From the NCBI RefSeq assembly GCF_051903065.1, contig NZ_CP178438.1: DNA of 64,000 nucleotides; one strand, given 5' to 3'. Each line of letters starts with the position of its first letter. The stretch's first letter is position 1. Below are positions 54,364 through 63,067 of the stretch, piece after piece. Made by a program: the position numbers and the translations under genes. Below the pieces are notes generated by a model. The model was not told the origin of the DNA and searched no databases. It saw only the letters and a program-made list of their open reading frames with translations. This stretch comes from Escherichia coli. GTDB taxonomy: Bacteria; Pseudomonadota; Gammaproteobacteria; Enterobacterales; Enterobacteriaceae.

Positions 54364-55104
54364 TCAGAAGTTATAAGTCACACCAAGCATGATGTCATGA
54401 CTTTTAACATCAACCTCTGATTTATATTTATCGCCCCACTCATCCTTGTAACTCACACTGCTGTCACCTGCATCAATATAGCGATAGCTGAGGTCAAGAG
54501 CGATATCCGGGGTTACGTCATAACGGACACCAGCCCCAAGGCTCCATGCAAAGTTGTCAGCAGAGTCTGAGTGTGACAACGACTCACGCCCACTGTACCC
54601 GTACCCATAATCCCAGGTACTGATACCAGTTGTTTTCTGATGAATTCTGGCGTAACCAATCCCTGCGGATACCCATGGTGTGAATGCACTGTCGTTCCGG
54701 AAGTCATAGTACGTATTCAGCATCAGAGTGTTGACTGACACTTCATTCTTCAGGTCATCACGCCAGTAACCACCTGACCAGCTGTCTTTATCTACGTTAT
54801 ACTTCGAATCAGCTTTTCCACGCGCGTAAAACTCCAGTTCTGTACGAACCGGAATACTGAACTGCGGATAAAAATCATAACCGGCCGCAATACCGCCACT
54901 GAATACCGTATCATGGTCATCGCCGCCTTTATACTTTGACGTTTCTTCCTCATCTCCTGACAGGAAACGCTGGTCTGAAAGTGACACCACAGAGGCACCG
55001 GCTTTACCGGTCAGATAAAAACCGCTTTTACCTTCCTCAGCACCTGCATTTGCTGCAAATACACAGGCTGCGGCCACCACTGAAACAGCAAAAACCTTTT
55101 TCAT
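54364..55104 (-). CDS. outer membrane beta-barrel protein (OmpA-like transmembrane domain family)
   Basis: 246-aa ORF with signal peptide MKKVFAVSVVAAACVFAANAGA, alternating aromatic/hydrophobic beta-strand pattern and C-terminal ...GVTYNF. Confidence 0.7.
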   Translation of the reverse strand: MKKVFAVSVVAAACVFAANAGAEEGKSGFYLTGKAGASVVSLSDQRFLSGDEEETSKYKGGDDHDTVFSGGIAAGYDFYPQFSIPVRTELEFYARGKADSKYNVDKDSWSGGYWRDDLKNEVSVNTLMLNTYYDFRNDSAFTPWVSAGIGYARIHQKTTGISTWDYGYGYSGRESLSHSDSADNFAWSLGAGVRYDVTPDIALDLSYRYIDAGDSSVSYKDEWGDKYKSEVDVKSHDIMLGVTYNF

Positions 55105-55455
55105 TTCAATTATCTCCGTTATTGCTCCGTTGCTGCAAGCAGTACTCAGTGCATTTTAAAACCCGCCATGCGATAGTCTCAATTGAATAAAATCGATCTA
55201 ATCGATAGATGATATCGATCGTCATTAACCAGAAATTTTTATCGTATTCAGTCAGCACAGATACAACAAATGCATGCCATGCAGACAGTCATACCCGGCA
55301 ACAACAGCAGATGGTTGCTGAGCAAGCAGGGAGTGAGGCTGAATCCCGGGGAAGAAAAAACCTGTAAAATTTGTTTATTCTGCCAGGAGATAAAAGTGAC
55401 GTGTGTTCATGTAACACACCAGGGACGAAAGATGCATGGACTGACAGTTTGGGGG

Positions 55456-56512
55456 GGCTTTGTTGAATAAATCGAACTTTTGCTGAGTTGAAGGATCAGA
55501 TCACGCATCCTCCCGACAACACAGACCATTCCGTGGCAAAGCAAAAGTTCAGAATCACCAACTGGTCCACCTACAACAAAGCTCTCATCAACCGTGGCTC
55601 CCTCACTTTCTGGCTGGATGATGAAGCGATTCAGGCCTGGTATGAGTCGGCAACGCCTTCATCACGAGGAAGGCCCCAGCGCTATTCTGATCTCGCCATC
55701 ACCACCGTTCTGGTGATTAAACGCGTATTCCGGCTGACCCTGCGGGCTGCGCAGGGTTTTATTGATTCCATTTTTGCCCTGATGAACGTTCCGTTGCGCT
55801 GCCCGGATTACACCAGTGTCAGTAAGCGGGCAAAGTCGGTTAATGTCAGTTTCAAAACGTCCACCCGGGGTGAAATCGCACACCTGGTGATTGATTCCAC
55901 CGGGCTGAAGGTCTTTGGTGAAGGCGAATGGAAAGTCAGAAAGCACGGCAAAGAGCGCCGTCGTATCTGGCGAAAGTTGCATCTTGCTGTTGACAGCAAC
56001 ACACATGAAGTTGTCTGTGCAGACCTGTCGCTGAATAACGTCACGGACTCAGAAGCCTTCCCGGGCCTTATCCGGCAGACTCACAGAAAAATCAGGGCAG
56101 CCGCGGCAGACGGGGCTTACGATACCCGGCTCTGTCACGATGAACTGCGCCGCAAAAAAATCAGCGCGCTTATTCCTCCCCGAAAAGGAGCAGGTTACTG
56201 GCCCGGTGAGTACGCAGACCGCAACCGTGCCGTTGCTAATCAGCGGCTGAGCGGAAGCAATGCACGGTGGAAATGGACAACGGAATATAACCGTCGCTCG
56301 ATAGCGGAAACGGCAATGTACAGAATGAAGCAGTTGTTGGGAGATTCACTGACGCTGCGTGACTACGATGGTCAGGTAGCGGAAGCTATGGCCATGGTGC
56401 GTGCGTTGAACAGGATGACAAAGGCTGGGATGCCAGAAAGCGTGCGTATTGCCTGAAAATCCAGCCAGCTACAGGGTCGTTCGCACGAAATCTTATTTAT
56501 TCAACAAAGCCC
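55456..56512 (+). mobile_element. IS903-group insertion sequence (IS5 family), about 1057 bp
   Basis: Left end ggctttgttgaataaatcgaacttttgctgagttgaaggatcag and inverted right end ...tcttatttattcaacaaagcc; single transposase ORF; no flanking 9-bp direct repeat. Confidence 0.85.
55533..56456 (+). CDS. IS903-type transposase (DDE)
   Basis: ORF VAKQKFRITNWSTYNKALINRGSLTFWLDDEAIQAWYE...; start placed at in-frame GTG to give 307 aa (tool ORF begins at TTG 55488). Confidence 0.85.
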   Translation: MAKQKFRITNWSTYNKALINRGSLTFWLDDEAIQAWYESATPSSRGRPQRYSDLAITTVLVIKRVFRLTLRAAQGFIDSIFALMNVPLRCPDYTSVSKRAKSVNVSFKTSTRGEIAHLVIDSTGLKVFGEGEWKVRKHGKERRRIWRKLHLAVDSNTHEVVCADLSLNNVTDSEAFPGLIRQTHRKIRAAAADGAYDTRLCHDELRRKKISALIPPRKGAGYWPGEYADRNRAVANQRLSGSNARWKWTTEYNRRSIAETAMYRMKQLLGDSLTLRDYDGQVAEAMAMVRALNRMTKAGMPESVRIA

Positions 56513-57624
56513 ATACCCCTCTGAAAATCAGTCATCAACTCACCAACACATCTTCTGAAATCTGTATTAAACTTATTGCTTAAATAGATGATATAACACA
56601 TCTTCCATTGCACGGAATCAGCGAAAACTGTCATTCTGGCAATCTTAACAAGATCATTTATCGGTTAATTTTATCAGTAAACAATGGAATATCACACTGA
56701 TAAAATGAACATTCAGGGTAAGATGATAAAATTCACATAAAAAATGCTGAAGATTATTTATTTCATGCAGATAAACGATAAAATACAAGAGAGTATATTT
56801 TTCAGTGTAAGAGTCAATCGTTCATCTCCACTGACGATCACGGTCAGCACATAAACAAAGTGAGTCCTCCTGCTTAGTCATTGCGTATCAGAAACTAAAA
56901 AACAAAAGATTCTGTAAACAACGTGACATTTTTTATGACATTTCCCGAATACAGATATATCAACAAACAGTAGTCAGCGTTGAATTAATAAGTTTTACAG
57001 GGCTATACGTATCTTATAAAACCACTCAACGACCATCATCACCTGACTATTTAGCGGGAGTATCATCTGTATAAATTCCTAAATAATAACACCTGTTATT
57101 AAAATAAGAATGCTGTCAGCAGTAAATTATTAACATAACACCTGTCCACTCTATCTGTTCTTCTAACTCAACCGGCATCGAAAATATTGCCTGATTAGTG
57201 CATCATAGCCTTCTTTTTTCTTTCCCGACCATCAAAACAAATACAACATTTACAACCACACAATAAAACAAAACTAAAACAAAACTAAAACATAAGATTA
57301 ACAACACCAATCAACAGGAAAACACTGAATATTGAGGTGCCCTGTAACCTGGAGAGCGCATACGGCGCATGTGATCAACACAGCCCATTCTTTTCTGTCA
57401 TCCCCCAAATGCAGAACAAACAAGCATAACCTAATGAATATAAAATAAAATATTATTTTTCACCATCATAAAAACATCAATGTATCTTTATATAAAAACA
57501 CTGATAACATGACATAAACATTTAAAAACATAAACAAATCACAACAAAAACATTTGATAATCACTTAGTGACAAAATAAAATTGAGACGATTTTGTTATA
57601 AGAGAGGCGCCATGGAGTGAGATA

Positions 57625-58644
57625 ATGAATAACGAACAGATGCTTATCAAATGCAAAGATCCCCGTAAATGTCGGTTTTATGCTGAATATCTGAATCACA
57701 AATACCCCAATGAATTCCCTCAGTTTGCGCCTGACAACCCACAAAACTGTATCAGAAATGTTAATGCGTTTTTAAAAGAAAAGTATTGTAATACTTCAAA
57801 CAATTCTTTTGGTGTTTTTGGTTCGACTGCAGAAGAAGCTCTCAGCAAAGAAATTAATGAACTTGAAATTATTGCAGGGCAGGCAATACTGCCTGAAGAG
57901 AGTTTTCTCTGGTTGAAAACTGACGAACTTGCGACTTTCTTTACCTGGACTACTATTTATCTGTCGAAGGAAGACCATACAAATTTCCCGGAAATAAACC
58001 ATAATTCATCAGGGATAAAAAACGGAATTGAAGTCAGAAAAAGACGAACAGTTACCGATGAAACGTTAAATACTTACAAAAAAAGTAACCTTCCGGATAA
58101 TCCATCATCCCATAACGAACGAATAAAAGTAATCATTTTATATTTTGATTCCTGTCATTCTTTAATTAATAAAAATGCAAAAAGCATATACCTCGAGGAA
58201 CTCAGGCAGACGTGGCTTAAAAATAAAAGCGCTTGTCAAAAGTTTAAGTGGCTCCTTCCTGACGATGATGAAATGTGTCAGTGGTTCTGGACAAGACTGA
58301 AACAAAAACAGGATGAAACACATCCGGTACATAACCCGGTGACCCGGTGGTTCATACCATCTTCAACGAAAGAATATTATCTTGCCTCTCTCGTCGCCTT
58401 TGCTTTATGGAAAGAGGCACCTGATACCATTGAACTGTTCAGAACACGCATAAATCATGCCTGGCATCAAAAAAAACAAAAAGACAAATATCGGAATGAT
58501 GGTAAAAAGGCTATTAATATACATATAAGAAGCAATGCGAAAGAAATGCTTGATGAACTCAGAACTGTTTACGGTCTGAGAACAGGAGAGTTTTTTGAAA
58601 TGCTGATTACAGAAAAATATCTTGAACACAAGCGAAGGAAGTAA
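57625..58644 (+). CDS. hypothetical protein, AT-rich orphan ORF
   Basis: 339-aa ORF with RBS ggagtgag upstream; lysine/asparagine-rich, several Cys/His; no family recognised from sequence alone. Confidence 0.5.
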   Translation: MNNEQMLIKCKDPRKCRFYAEYLNHKYPNEFPQFAPDNPQNCIRNVNAFLKEKYCNTSNNSFGVFGSTAEEALSKEINELEIIAGQAILPEESFLWLKTDELATFFTWTTIYLSKEDHTNFPEINHNSSGIKNGIEVRKRRTVTDETLNTYKKSNLPDNPSSHNERIKVIILYFDSCHSLINKNAKSIYLEELRQTWLKNKSACQKFKWLLPDDDEMCQWFWTRLKQKQDETHPVHNPVTRWFIPSSTKEYYLASLVAFALWKEAPDTIELFRTRINHAWHQKKQKDKYRNDGKKAINIHIRSNAKEMLDELRTVYGLRTGEFFEMLITEKYLEHKRRK

Positions 58645-58695
58645 TTCATTACCTGTTACATTCTAAATAATCTCAGACAGATATTATCTCCGTGA

Positions 58696-58731
58696 ATCCC
58701 CCGCCACCTTTCCGGTGCGCGGGGTTTTGTC
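58696..58731 (+). terminator. putative rho-independent terminator downstream of the 339-aa ORF
   Basis: GC-rich inverted repeat ccccgc...gcgggg followed by ttttgtctttttt. Confidence 0.45.
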
Positions 58732-58753
58732 TTTTTTCACCGGGAATACATGT

Positions 58754-59581
58754 ATGAATCCGTCTGATGCCATTGAGGCAATTGAAAAACCGCTCTCCTC
58801 CCTGCCTTACTCACTTTCCCGTCACATCCTGGAACATCTGCGCAAACTCACCAGCCACGAACCCGTGATTGGCATTATGGGGAAAAGCGGGGCCGGTAAA
58901 TCCTCACTCTGTAATGCACTGTTTCAGGGGGAGGTCACCCCGGTCAGTGATGTTCACGCCGGCACCCGGGAAGTGCAGCGCTTCCGTCTGAGTGGCCATG
59001 GTCACAGCATGGTTATCACTGACCTGCCCGGGGTGGGCGAGAGCCGTGACAGGGATGCAGAGTATGAAGCCCTGTACCGTAACATTCTGCCTGAACTTGA
59101 CCTGGTACTGTGGCTGATTAAAGCCGATGACCGTGCCTTGTCTGTGGATGAGTATTTCTGGCGACACATTCTGCACCGGGGACATCAGCAGGTGCTGTTT
59201 GTGGTGACGCAGGCCGATAAAACGGAGCCCTGCCATGAATGGGATATGGCCGGTATTCAGCCTTCTCCCGCACAGGCACAGAACATTCGCGAAAAAACGG
59301 AGGCGGTATTCCGTCTGTTCCGGCCCGTACATCCGGTTGTGGCCGTATCGGCTCGCACCGGCTGGGAACTGGATACGCTGGTCAGTGCGCTCATGACAGC
59401 GCTTCCCGACCATGCCGCCAGTCCCCTGATGACCCGCCTGCAGGACGAGCTGCGCACGGAATCTGTCCGCGCTCAGGCCCGTGAACAGTTTACCGGTGCG
59501 GTGGACCGGATATTTGACACGGCGGAGAGCGTCTGTATTGCCTCTGTTGCCCGCGCGGTATGGAACTGGATTTTCTTCTGA
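58754..59581 (+). CDS. YfjP/YeeP/YkfA-family small GTPase (prophage-like island backbone GTPase)
   Basis: P-loop GIMGKSGAGKSSLCNALF, G3 DLPGVGE, G4-like TQADK, C-terminal ...ARAVWNWIFF resembling K-12 YfjP/YkfA from memory; start at ATG 58754 (tool ORF starts at GTG 58715). Confidence 0.8.
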   Translation: MNPSDAIEAIEKPLSSLPYSLSRHILEHLRKLTSHEPVIGIMGKSGAGKSSLCNALFQGEVTPVSDVHAGTREVQRFRLSGHGHSMVITDLPGVGESRDRDAEYEALYRNILPELDLVLWLIKADDRALSVDEYFWRHILHRGHQQVLFVVTQADKTEPCHEWDMAGIQPSPAQAQNIREKTEAVFRLFRPVHPVVAVSARTGWELDTLVSALMTALPDHAASPLMTRLQDELRTESVRAQAREQFTGAVDRIFDTAESVCIASVARAVWNWIFF

Positions 59582-59701
59582 ACCCGGTGGTGATGCACCA
59601 GACTCTTGTTACAGATTTTTAACTCCATGAAAACACAATGCAAACGCAGCCATACCCGGGTTGTCCCCTTGTGTTGTGTTTTCCAGATTAATAGAATGCA
59701 T

Positions 59702-59720
59702 CGATCGTTATAAACGATCG
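59702..59720. promoter_or_regulatory. perfect inverted repeat (cgatcgtt-ata-aacgatcg) about 60 bp upstream of the dynamin-like gene
   Basis: 8-bp arms with 3-bp spacer in the 200-bp gap between the two GTPase genes; candidate operator. Confidence 0.3.
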
Positions 59721-59780
59721 TTTGTGGTAAATGACCTCCTCCGTGGTTGTCATGAAAATGCGTCTCAGGAAGGTTAAATA

Positions 59781-62165
59781 ATGCACGAAAAGAACATCGC
59801 CCTGCTTTGTGATGAAGCCGACCGACTTTTGCAACTGAACATTAATCTGCTCCGGCAAATGGTTGATGAACCGGATGTGTTATCTGACAGTAAGAACGAA
59901 AACAGACTGCTTTTCGATAAACAGAAAGCACTGAAAAGAATTGAGGAGCTGGAGGGCGAACAAATCAAAACCGCCCGCAGGGAGATGGTGCTGGCTGTTG
60001 TCGGCACGATGAAAGCAGGTAAATCAACTACCATCAACGCCATTGTGGGGCAGGAAATTCTGCCTAACCGTAACCGCCCCATGACCTCTGTACCGACGCT
60101 CATCCGCCACGTTCCCGGAAAAACTGAGCCGGTCCTCCATCTGGAACATATTCAGCCCGTCCGCAATTTATTAAGCACACTGCAACAAAAACTCGACACC
60201 CCGGCAGGACAGCAAGTCGCACAGACCCTGCAGCAAACCGGGGATACCTGCGAACTGCTGGATATTCTGGCAAATGATGGCTGGCTCAAAAATGAATACC
60301 ACGGGGAGGAGGAAATCTTTACCGGACTGGCATCGTTAAACGATCTGGTTCGCCTTGCTGCGGCAATGGGGAGTGAGTTTCCTTTTGATGAATACGCAGA
60401 AGTGCAGAAACTGCCGGTGATCGACGTGGAATTCAGCCATCTGGTGGGGATGGATGCATGCCAGGGAACACTCACACTGCTGGATACCCCCGGCCCTAAT
60501 GAGGCCGGACAACCGCAGATGGAAGTGATGATGCGGGATCAACTGCAGAAAGCCTCTGCGGTGCTGGCGGTGATGGATTACACCCAGATGAACTCAAAAG
60601 CGGATGAAGACGTCCGTAAAGAGCTTAATGCCATTGCTGACGTATCAGCCGGCCGCCTGTTTGTGCTGGTCAATAAATTTGATGAGAAAGACCGCAATGG
60701 CGATGGGGCAGATGCCGTACGCCAGAAAGTTCCGGCAATGCTGAACAGTGATGTGCTGCCCGCCTCCCGCGTTTATCCAGGCTCATCACGTCAGGCGTAC
60801 CTGGCTAACCGTGCGCTTCATGAGTTACGGAAAAACGGAACCCTTCCTGTTGATGAAGCCTGGGTCGATGATTTTGTCAGGGAAGCCTTCGGTCGCATGA
60901 AAAAAGAATACGTCTGTAAAGACAGTGAAATGGCAACCGAAGGGGCGACAGACCTGTGGGAAGGTTCACTTATCGATCAACTGATAACGGAAGTCATACA
61001 GAGCTCCCATTCCAGAGCGGCGGCACTGGCGGTTGATTCTGCCGCCGCAAAACTGATGCAGAATGCGGAAAATGTCAGCGAATATCTGTCATTACGCCAT
61101 CAGGGGCTACAGCAAAGCATTCAGTCACTGCAGGCGCATATCTCCAGCCTGCTGGCGGATATCCGGGAAATCGCGGACTGTCAGGAGCAGGTGACCGCAG
61201 ATGTCAGAATGGCTATGGAGGAGATCGATACTAAAACCCGGGAATTACTGACGGGGGTCTGCACCTCACTGGAAGAGGAGCTGAATGACTATTTCAGAAG
61301 CGGTAAACGCAAAGAACAGCAAATGCTGGAGGAAGAAAATTCAGCGCAGCCCCGGGAGAGAAACGCATTCGCTTTCTTTCACGATATTTTCGGAACCGGA
61401 AATCAGCATGACAGGATGCGGGACTTTGATCCGGACAGCCCCGAAATAAAATTCAGTGATCGCAGGGAAGCCCTTGAACTGATGACGCAAATCGAATCGA
61501 CCGTGACCAGCCTGCACCGTGAGGCTGAAGCACAGTTCCGTCCTGAACTGGAAAAAATCGTCAGGGGTATTGAAACAGGTTTTCGTGGTACGGCCCTGTA
61601 CGCCACAGAAAATATTGCCGGACGCATCAATGCCCGTCTGGAGGATGAAGGTTTCACTGTAAAAATCAGTTTTCCGGCAGTCAGCCAGTTACAGACCCGG
61701 CTCGCAGTAAAAACAAATCTGAGCGCGCTTATGGAGGAAAGAACGGAGACCGTCACTCGTCGCTGTCGACAGGATGGTGTCTGGGGTACGCTTTGTCGAT
61801 GGGCAAACACCAGTGACTGGGGCTGGAAAGAGTACAGTGTGGATGTGAGCCGCAGCGTGATCAATATCAACAAGGTCAGAGAGGAAGTGATGTCACTGAC
61901 CCGGGCATATTTCGGGGAGCTGCAGGCATCCATTGAGCAGGATATTAACCAGCCCGTCCGCCAGGAAATCGATGCCTTTTTCTGCGCATTCAGGGAGAAA
62001 GTTGAACAACTGCGTAACACGCTGATTCAGAGCTCTGAAGATCGTAAACGCGATCAGCAGGCGCAGGAACGGCTTACCGGGCGACTTCAGGCATTAAATG
62101 AAAGGGTTCCTGAGCTCATTACTGACAGTAAGGCGCTGAGGGAAGAGCTGGAGACAATGCTGTGA
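59781..62165 (+). CDS. bacterial dynamin-like large GTPase
   Basis: 794-aa ORF; G1 VVGTMKAGKSTTINAIVG (res 73-90), G3 LLDTPGPNE, G4 VLVNKFDEKD, followed by about 500 aa of helical/coiled-coil stalk-like sequence; RBS caggaagg 7 nt upstream. Confidence 0.8.
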   Translation: MHEKNIALLCDEADRLLQLNINLLRQMVDEPDVLSDSKNENRLLFDKQKALKRIEELEGEQIKTARREMVLAVVGTMKAGKSTTINAIVGQEILPNRNRPMTSVPTLIRHVPGKTEPVLHLEHIQPVRNLLSTLQQKLDTPAGQQVAQTLQQTGDTCELLDILANDGWLKNEYHGEEEIFTGLASLNDLVRLAAAMGSEFPFDEYAEVQKLPVIDVEFSHLVGMDACQGTLTLLDTPGPNEAGQPQMEVMMRDQLQKASAVLAVMDYTQMNSKADEDVRKELNAIADVSAGRLFVLVNKFDEKDRNGDGADAVRQKVPAMLNSDVLPASRVYPGSSRQAYLANRALHELRKNGTLPVDEAWVDDFVREAFGRMKKEYVCKDSEMATEGATDLWEGSLIDQLITEVIQSSHSRAAALAVDSAAAKLMQNAENVSEYLSLRHQGLQQSIQSLQAHISSLLADIREIADCQEQVTADVRMAMEEIDTKTRELLTGVCTSLEEELNDYFRSGKRKEQQMLEEENSAQPRERNAFAFFHDIFGTGNQHDRMRDFDPDSPEIKFSDRREALELMTQIESTVTSLHREAEAQFRPELEKIVRGIETGFRGTALYATENIAGRINARLEDEGFTVKISFPAVSQLQTRLAVKTNLSALMEERTETVTRRCRQDGVWGTLCRWANTSDWGWKEYSVDVSRSVININKVREEVMSLTRAYFGELQASIEQDINQPVRQEIDAFFCAFREKVEQLRNTLIQSSEDRKRDQQAQERLTGRLQALNERVPELITDSKALREELETML

Positions 62166-63067
62166 CTTCACCATTTATTCAACAAATTGCTGATAACCGG
62201 GTATGTCAGGTACTCACCTGTCTTCCTGAAAAATTTGTGGTTGATTTCGCAAACGGAATCGATGTTGCACAGGAGCATATCCGCACGGCCGGAGAGCGCA
62301 CGTTCTTCCGGCGTTTAAAAGAGGGGATGACCGGCGAAGGCGCTGCACGGCAGAATGCCATCAATGCTTCGCTTGCACAGGGCGTTGAGGCGTCCCTGCG
62401 CTGGCTGACGGAGCTGACAACGTCACTTGCCACCACAAACTACGCGATTACCCGGGTAAACGACAGGGTCAGTTCACTGGTCAGTGATACTGCCAGGCTG
62501 GCGCATTATTCGGCTGACACGCGGGAGCAGTTACTCACCCTGGCCGATCAGGTTCACCAGAAACTGAATCATCTTGAAGAAAAACTCCACCGTGTTGACC
62601 AGGTTCAGCGGGCGCAGTTACATCTTGAGCAGATATTCTCATGGTGGAGCGCCGGGCGATATGCGTCATTTTCCCCTGCCGGACGTTGTTATGTGGCACT
62701 TGAAGAGCTTCGCTGGGGCGCGTTTGGTGATGTGATACGCCAGGGCGAAACAGGCCAGGTTAACCAGCTACTGGATATTCTCAGACATAAAGCATTAACG
62801 CAGATGGCACAGGAGAGTGGCGGTAGTGCAACCGTGCGTCTGAACACTCTGGACTGGCTTGGTGGTCAGGGCCGGGAGCAGGCAGATAACGAGTGGCATG
62901 ACGCGATTAACTGGCTGGGGGACTGGTGCAGTGAAGAGCAGCATCCGGTGATCTGGTCAACCACGCAGGCTGCAGAACACTTACCGGTTCGCATGCCTCG
63001 CCTCTGCTCTGCAGAACGCCTCTCTGAAAGTATGGTCGATGAAATATTTCAGAAGGGGGCAGCATGA
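62162..63067 (+). CDS. hypothetical protein of unknown function, translationally coupled to flanking genes
   Basis: 301-aa ORF whose GTG start overlaps the upstream stop (GTGA) and whose stop overlaps the downstream ATG (ATGA); predicted helical middle region. Confidence 0.55.
   Translation: MTSPFIQQIADNRVCQVLTCLPEKFVVDFANGIDVAQEHIRTAGERTFFRRLKEGMTGEGAARQNAINASLAQGVEASLRWLTELTTSLATTNYAITRVNDRVSSLVSDTARLAHYSADTREQLLTLADQVHQKLNHLEEKLHRVDQVQRAQLHLEQIFSWWSAGRYASFSPAGRCYVALEELRWGAFGDVIRQGETGQVNQLLDILRHKALTQMAQESGGSATVRLNTLDWLGGQGREQADNEWHDAINWLGDWCSEEQHPVIWSTTQAAEHLPVRMPRLCSAERLSESMVDEIFQKGAA

Follow-up and report, generated by a model that had tools for sequence, protein, structure and literature searches.

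According to the account of Lucchini et al., 2006, that is cited in PMC12922286, AT-rich intergenic and promoter regions in the genomic islands of Salmonella and E. coli are subject to xenogeneic silencing by H-NS and Hha. Autoregulated promoters of the CopG/RepB type (PF10723) have a palindromic operator to which a ribbon-helix-helix repressor binds. Rho utilisation (rut) regions are C-rich, G-poor and unstructured stretches of untranslated RNA, about 80 nt or more in length. A further non-coding region, the IS102 (IsrC) sRNA region (RF00124), belongs to the same island family as the locus considered here and lies between yeeP-type GTPase and Ag43 genes.

Here we compare with these systems a gene-free gap in a 64-kb stretch of E. 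coli DNA (hereafter the window), which ends at a gene for a 339-aa protein (57625–58644, + strand). Like xenogeneically silenced regions, the gap is AT-rich (about 33% G+C, where the rest of the window is near 50%) and lies in a tRNA-linked island upstream of an operon; as in H-NS/Hha-silenced islands, hha is carried nearby in related islands. Binding of H-NS to the gap is plausible, and its composition would fit. The gap shows no notable enrichment of the H-NS high-affinity motif (TCGATAAATT-like, at most 2 mismatches), with four sites corresponding to 3.6 per kb versus 1.25 per kb window-wide and with higher values in other 1.1 kb windows, and its A-tracts are not helically phased, no 10–11 bp AA/TT periodicity or A-tract phasing being found in the gap. 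The likeness to CopG/RepB-type promoters consists in a short perfect palindrome within or next to the predicted core promoter, and in a C-terminus of the 339-aa product that is predicted to follow the beta-strand, helix, helix pattern of such regulators; the protein differs from the classical regulators in being about 300 aa longer and in having a Pfam match that stays below threshold. With rut regions the gap shares a C/G ratio of 3–13 over 100-nt windows, an almost structureless predicted RNA and freedom from ORFs, but its A content (~50%) exceeds its C content (20–29%). The IS102 (IsrC) feature is present in the Edwardsiella locus. Unlike the gap, it lies downstream of the GTPase gene rather than upstream of the 339-aa gene, and a search of positions 55000–59500 of the window against Rfam gave no match at E ≤ 1.

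The left border of the gap is formed by an IS903-like insertion sequence of the IS5 family (55456–56511, + strand), which carries DDE_Tnp_1_5 and DDE_Tnp_1 domains, has GGCTTTGTTGAATAAATCG and its complement as terminal repeats, and stops at 56511 with the inverted repeat ...TTATTCAACAAAGCC. In a near-identical genome, PGAP labels this element an IS5 family transposase. Because its flanks (AGTTTGGGG versus CATACCCCT) lack a 9-bp target duplication, the element is placed at a rearrangement junction; in other genomes its place is taken by an IS1 remnant that lies some 60 nt more to the left. The right border is the 339-aa ORF, which begins at 57625. Within 56457–57624 (1168 nt) there is no start-to-stop ORF of at least 60 aa, which agrees with the preliminary description, where none had been seen between the right end of IS903 and the 339-aa ORF. 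This is the largest ORF-free gap of the window, the runner-up measuring 423 nt. The longest ORF inside it is 44 aa, whereas the longest ORF in dinucleotide shuffles averages 67 aa; 63% of the shuffles contain an ORF of at least 60 aa, and in 3% the longest ORF is 44 aa or less, so composition does not quite account for the scarcity of ORFs in the gap. Stop codons are in slight excess. The earlier characterization of the DNA as AT-rich with A-tracts also holds: at 32.8% G+C (67% A+T) the stretch 56512–57624 is lower than any other 1.1 kb window in the 64 kb, and its A/T runs of at least 4 are about three times denser than the window average (30.6 versus 10.7 per kb), the + strand having 26 A-runs and 8 T-runs of this length. 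The AT-rich block extends past the ORF start, and the 339-aa gene itself is only 33–40% G+C. The gene-free stretch is real, yet it is an ordinary intergenic region of a genomic island.

The full 1.05–1.1 kb stretch is carried, at 85–100% identity, by 245 of the 5426 complete E. coli genomes, where it is always chromosomal, essentially single-copy and without annotation in any carrier. Among the strains that have it are O104:H4 C227-11, HUE1, NCTC9699 and GDSC2BY4G; the plasmid and phage collections that we searched for gap DNA gave no match. Directly 3' of the stretch, every genome inspected has the same 339-aa gene followed by a YeeP-like GTPase gene, after which E. coli carriers usually have Ag43. 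On its left side the stretch typically has hha, a YagM-like gene, alpA, a 190-aa gene and the remnant of an old IS1, and in most E. coli islands the alpA and 190-aa genes are oriented like the 339-aa gene. The version in the window sits in a leuX island, with the left neighbours replaced by the IS903-like element and with the GTPase gene followed by dynamin-family, RdcB-family and patatin-like genes rather than Ag43. A literature search found nothing specific on the region or on the island module, and a look for ChIP or expression data from a carrier strain likewise came back empty.

We propose that the gap is intergenic, non-coding DNA of a leuX-associated island, made up of a proximal promoter/operator and a distal spacer that has no sequence-specific function, and we regard this explanation as probable. 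Alignment of 13 alleles spanning the identity range gives a nucleotide diversity of 0.084 for 56513–57470 (95% bootstrap 0.074–0.094), which compares with 0.086 (0.066–0.107) at the 4-fold degenerate sites of the two flanking genes. Diversity drops to 0.039 in 57471–57624 and to 0.028 in 57540–57624, and positions 57599–57640 are nearly invariant among alleles. The non-coding part has sustained 13 indel events (1, 1, 1, 2, 3, 3, 4, 8, 11, 11, 12, 26 and 49 nt), most of them not multiples of three; the two flanking coding sequences have one indel only, in an allele annotated as a pseudogene. Natural insertions point in the same direction. In strain ZH142 an IS1 is inserted near 56700, in strain XYEH3934 an IS3 removes everything left of about 57155 and leaves 470 nt, and in another natural isolate an IS3 lies at the left edge of the gap; in all three the downstream gene is intact. 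Between genera, the last ~170 nt are the only alignable part, and the distal part has no similarity. The distal AT-rich spacer, ~950 nt of non-coding DNA at 56512–57470 (no strand assigned), thus evolves neutrally and withstands both indels and the insertion of IS elements, and only the last ~150 nt are constrained. Taken together, the neutral drift, the large indels and the natural truncations indicate that any role of the distal part has no sequence requirement. In the mechanism that we propose, this part would simply drift, gaining slippage duplications, deletions and IS insertions.

Neutral evolution would also be expected of a dead gene, and decayed genes were among the contents that the preliminary description had offered for such a region. 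A protein-coding gene reduced to a remnant by frameshifts and stop codons has some appeal, given that ~1.1 kb is gene-sized and that the island is full of IS elements and pseudogenes. We nevertheless consider it very unlikely. Six-frame translations of the gap have no Pfam match at E ≤ 1, and the six-frame concatenate has no match at E ≤ 10 among 5.8 billion predicted proteins. A tblastn search with the proteins encoded on either side of the corresponding gap in other lineages finds nothing in the gap, and no related intact version at 65% or more DNA identity is present in E. coli genomes, plasmids or phages. The related elements of other genera are also gene-free at the same position.

The gap might instead encode a small RNA or a small protein or toxin, such as the product of a hydrophobic 35-aa minus-strand ORF at 57203–57310. 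Several ORFs of 25–44 aa are intact in 10–11 of the 12 other alleles, and the fold of 56593–56712 is modestly stable. The intactness of these ORFs says little, however, because the alleles are ~94% identical, and diversity over the small ORFs equals the neutral rate. Those of 20–44 aa mostly start with TTG or GTG, lack a Shine-Dalgarno sequence and lie in neutrally evolving DNA, and the protein searches described above are as empty for them as for a decayed gene. As for a small RNA, the equivalent gaps of five other lineages are, like the gap itself, without an Rfam match, no intrinsic terminator is predicted within 56400–57624, and fold z-scores on both strands are mostly −2 to +1, with none below −3.1. 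The lone stable stem is formed by three copies of TGATAAAAT, one of them inverted, which make up a 15-nt imperfect inverted repeat (56664–56738, no strand assigned). Its fold is only mildly stable (z-scores of −2.6 and −3.1 on the two strands), and a T-to-C change at 56672, within the stem, is carried by 5 of the 13 alleles with no compensating change; this cluster is probably a product of chance in AT-rich DNA. We judge a small gene of either kind to be highly improbable. With diversity at the neutral level, frame-breaking indels, empty searches, no intact gene in related islands and neither a terminator nor a stable fold, nothing in our data speaks for a decayed gene, and nothing for a small RNA or small protein; these earlier suggestions are not supported.

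The short tandem repeat that had been noticed in the gap is present at 57264–57292 (+ strand), with TAAAACAAAAC as its 11-nt unit (Tandem Repeats Finder: period 11, 2.6 copies, 100% match). Representative alleles show two copy states only: the extra unit is found in the window and in L001-type alleles, and the other 11 representatives have 1.6 copies. Genome GDSC2BY4G has the same island arrangement and a gap that is 11 nt shorter. The restriction of the extra unit to the window and L001-type alleles, together with its absence from GDSC2BY4G, indicates a recent slippage duplication. The repeat is polymorphic in copy number among strains and is in this sense a variable-number tandem repeat. A conserved repeat array is ruled out, what is present being a one-unit duplication in a single allele group. 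The hydrophobic 35-aa minus-strand ORF is a reverse-complement by-product of this A/C-rich repeat and is intact in 1 of the 12 other alleles.

The proximal ~150 nt have a different character. We propose that 57471–57624 holds the promoter and operator of the 339-aa gene/GTPase operon, a prediction from sequence that is supported by constraint confined to this part, by a palindrome shared across genera and by promoter-like hexamers; the earlier suggestion that the gap could hold the promoter of the downstream gene finds its support here. The palindrome, AATCACT-T-AGTGA in the window (57559–57571, no strand assigned; TCACTTAGTGA within 57540–57610), is a candidate operator or activator site. Written as AATCACT-N-AGTGA, it shows no variation, or almost none, across six lineages, of which four are E. 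coli, Edwardsiella, Rahnella and Yersinia and the other two are metagenomic. An exact match to ATCACTNAGTGA occurs once per locus in 21 of 22 loci, in some of them as the same palindrome on both strands, and L022 has one mismatch; the expectation by chance for the palindrome with up to one mismatch is 0.7 matches in 64 kb. In loci of 8–17 kb the palindrome is positioned 51–66 nt upstream of the start codon. A second conserved element, the box ATAAAAACA (57468–57476, + strand), is found about 85 nt upstream of the palindrome. Its columns A86–A89, C91 and A92 are invariant in the six-lineage alignment, and in Yersinia the box belongs to a direct repeat spaced by 44 nt.

Two candidate promoters can be placed with respect to the palindrome. 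The first, P1, is a predicted sigma-70 promoter (57554–57582, + strand) with TTGATA, a 17-nt spacer and TAAAAT, for 10 of 12 consensus matches. P1 encloses the palindrome but is specific to E. coli and is not conserved in other lineages; promoter-like sites in general are no more frequent in the gap than in shuffled sequence. The second candidate, P2, is suggested by the lineage sequences: in all six, a −10-like hexamer (TATAAG, TATAAT, TAAGAT, TAAAAT, TACGAT or TTCAAT) follows 25–26 nt after the palindrome, the window having TATAAG at 57597–57602 (+ strand). Relative to this conserved hexamer the palindrome is centred at about −43, a placement that would also suit an activator, and it lies at or just upstream of the −35 position. 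A Shine-Dalgarno sequence, GGAG (57614–57617, + strand), precedes the ATG by 7 nt.

The palindrome is most likely bound by a dimeric regulator, and a plausible binder would be the 339-aa protein itself, whose C-terminus is a candidate ribbon-helix-helix domain; binding by this domain would make the operon, in which the 339-aa gene is followed by the GTPase gene, autoregulated. More distant members of the protein family have a different but related palindrome, ACTAC-NNN-GTAGT, within ~100 nt upstream of the start codon, perfect in L025 and L027 and looser in L026 and L028. As with CopG/RepB-type operators, the palindrome varies in step with the protein lineage, a pattern that would fit co-evolution of an operator with its binding protein.

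The preliminary description had treated the downstream gene as an orphan, which it is not: a profile search for its family returns 491 cluster representatives at E ≤ 0.001. RefSeq names the protein either 'transcriptional regulator' or 'hypothetical protein', and homologs in Edwardsiella, Rahnella, Yersinia and two metagenomic lineages are 48–59% identical to it. A profile scan of genome contigs for the family gave one E. coli-like contig only, and gene contexts were taken from the contigs that encode its homologs. The C-terminal 62 aa match PF10723 (RepB-RCR_reg) at E=0.0056 with 17 bits, where the cutoff is 21 bits, and the same profile positions are matched in three lineages; NCBIfam RepA matches the protein at E=0.021. 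In precomputed tables, its homologs are assigned PF10723. The full-length protein has no Pfam match at E ≤ 0.01, PDB sequence searches returned nothing meaningful, and the AlphaFold model has a pLDDT of 49, too low to use. We treat the protein as ribbon-helix-helix-like on the strength of its sequence pattern, and not as a member of PF10723. Because the PF10723 match is below threshold and the structure model is poor, autoregulation through the palindrome is something that we infer. The same holds for the identity of the binding protein, for the choice of promoter and for any part played by H-NS or Rho, whereas the position of the gap, its base composition, its pattern of conservation, its lack of homologs and the conservation of its motifs are shown directly.

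The gap could in principle serve another purpose, as a cis-acting replication or transfer origin of the excised island on which the inovirus Gp2-like YagK/YfjJ protein encoded nearby would act. This idea is modelled on the intergenic region beside gene II of filamentous phages. Outside E. coli a divergent YagK/YfjJ plus AlpA module usually forms a border of the gap; seven non-E. coli lineages have the gap between the family gene and this module, and in 4 of the 7 the Gp2-like gene is the immediate neighbour. We consider an origin extremely improbable all the same. No origin-like hairpins or iterons are found in the gap and nothing in them is common to lineages, the interior of the gap having neither conserved sequence nor hairpins between lineages, and the E. 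coli region is without strong inverted repeats or significant folding. Moreover, the Gp2-like gene of E. coli islands is several kb away, beyond hha, yagM, alpA and the IS1 remnant, and in the window it is absent.

Under our preferred explanation, a promoter/operator with a spacer, any distal role would be exerted through bulk properties, and two of these deserve attention. The first is base composition. The sense strand has an A/C-rich tract depleted of G at 57201–57310 (+ strand; 2–4 G per 100 nt, C/G up to 13) and a second G-depleted tract at 57431–57560 (+ strand; 3–6 G per 100 nt), and these two tracts hold 21 of the 25 most skewed 100-nt windows of the 64 kb. In 100-nt windows, C/G is 3.2–13 at 57163–57312 and 2.5–4.5 at 57413–57562. 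The predicted + strand RNA of 57193–57312 is essentially unstructured (MFE −1.1 kcal/mol), that of 57431–57560 has an MFE of −4.6 to −5.4 kcal/mol per 120 nt, and values for both tracts together span −1 to −7. The gap thus contains at least 80 nt of untranslated sequence with C in excess of G and little predicted structure, as is used to define rut sites. The second property is length: the gaps upstream of family members in nine lineages measure 516, 565, 828, 1090, 1128, ~1170, 1377, 1557 and 1683 nt (median ~1.1 kb). G depletion and gap length fit a bulk-property role, as an H-NS platform or in Rho loading, without proving one. The distal spacer may offer an AT-rich surface for H-NS-type silencing, and sense transcription through it would give an untranslated, unstructured and G-poor RNA onto which Rho could load.

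A stronger form of this idea is that the distal part is a selected architectural element, a long, G-poor, untranslated leader or insulator in which H-NS would nucleate and Rho would terminate sense transcription, whether incoming or spurious, so that the operon stays silent until induction. This proposal is compatible with our best explanation, but it gives the spacer a real function. The long gaps of nine lineages and the window's most extreme C>G skew, on the strand from which an unstructured RNA is predicted, are what such an element would lead one to expect, and a similar, weaker G depletion is seen in the gaps of Rahnella, Yersinia, L021 and L022. Because the upstream alpA and 190-aa genes of most E. 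coli islands are co-oriented with the gene that follows the gap, read-through into the gap is possible there. Together with the slight excess of stop codons, the G depletion and the long gaps could reflect selection that a comparison of diversity does not see. Against this stand the neutral-rate evolution of the spacer with its indels of up to 49 nt, the natural truncation to 470 nt that keeps the downstream gene intact, and the gaps of Edwardsiella, L025 and L028, which show no G depletion. Strand-biased mutation rather than selection could also cause the depletion. Finally, islands of this type contain another AT-rich gap, of ~1 kb, without G depletion, so that gaps of such length may just be a common feature of these islands. 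On balance, we think a selected architectural element unlikely.

The idea can be extended from this locus to the family. The AT-rich gap (~0.5–1.7 kb), although not conserved in sequence, would then be a selected silencing or insulation platform of a widespread family of integrative islands, a generalization that we advance as a distinctly doubtful one. The islands concerned have YagK/YfjJ plus AlpA on one side and, on the other, the ~320-aa palindrome-associated regulator plus the GTPase, and the sense strand of the gap is G-depleted in most lineages. If this reading were true, H-NS nucleation and Rho loading would hold the cargo operon, whether Ag43 or the dynamin/RdcB/patatin module, off until a signal arrives.

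These analyses indicate that the largest unannotated gap in the window is free of hidden genes, whether intact or decayed, and of small RNAs, and that its tandem repeat is a trivial result of slippage; since no hidden gene was found, annotation pipelines are right to leave the gap empty. What is gained is modest: a candidate operator and promoter (57554–57602) for an uncharacterised and widespread family of ~320-aa regulators, which heads a GTPase-Ag43 operon or, as in the window, a GTPase-dynamin-RdcB-patatin operon in leuX, pheV and similar islands. The palindrome AATCACT-N-AGTGA offers a concrete handle for studying the induction of these adhesin or putative defence modules.

The left border of the AT-rich gap is formed by an IS903-like element (window 55456-56511), whose left flank, AGTTTGGGG, and right flank, CATACCCCT, were compared and do not carry the 9-bp target-site duplication. 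On the left-hand side of the position equivalent to window 56512, other genomes have an IS1 remnant together with alpA, yagM and hha. The genes on this side in the window instead encode an integrase, a phosphoethanolamine transferase and a beta-barrel outer membrane protein of 246 aa. Because no duplication is present and the left-hand genes differ from those of other genomes, the IS903-like element marks a rearrangement or deletion junction.

Within the gap, a perfect 11-nt direct repeat, ATAACACCTGT, is found at window 57086-57096 and 57135-57145, a spacing of 49 nt. Three E. coli alleles of this region (L009-L011) have lost exactly 49 nt at this repeat pair, a deletion whose length and position fit either slippage or recombination involving the two copies.

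At the right border, the Shine-Dalgarno GGAG of the 339-aa gene lies inside a two-codon mini-ORF, ATG GAG TGA (window 57612-57620). This mini-ORF shows almost no variation across the E. coli alleles and may be trivial. The 339-aa gene is a pseudogene by frameshift in ETEC O6:H16 M9682-C1 and through an internal stop codon in O150:H6 FEX669 (pseudogene alleles at L005 4598-5616 and L011 4556-5575), so some strains can do without it.

The genes that follow the GTPase gene in the window encode a dynamin-family protein (794 aa) and an RdcB-family protein (58757-63067 and beyond), and PGAP annotation of a near-identical genome adds a patatin-like phospholipase gene to this set. These genes occupy the place usually held by Ag43, and the C-terminus of the GTPase departs from that of Ag43-linked alleles starting at about 59541. 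Homologous dynamin-RdcB-phospholipase operons are reported to be strongly up-regulated when E. coli MP1 is lysogenic for Kapi1, and it has been proposed that they act in phage defence (PMC12922286, 2026). Replacement of Ag43 also accounts for the lack in the window of the IS102 RNA (Rfam RF00124), known as the small RNA locus of yeeP-flu-type intergenic regions, which in the Edwardsiella island sits between the GTPase and autotransporter genes (L014 8116-8359; 49.1 bits, gathering score 46).

In related islands, the genes on the left of the AlpA and YfjJ module include defence-type cargo: a Gabija-like pair of OLD-like TOPRIM ATPase and UvrD helicase genes in Edwardsiella (L014 1-2908), an OLD-like ATPase gene in Rahnella (L016 1-1743) and the BREX gene brxL in E. 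coli C 237-04 (L002 1-2053). The last of these islands also contains a second gene-free AT-rich gap of about 1 kb and 37% G+C, located between hha and the YagM-like gene (L002 4549-5549), from which G depletion is absent. Long AT-rich intergenic regions appear to be typical of these islands in general.
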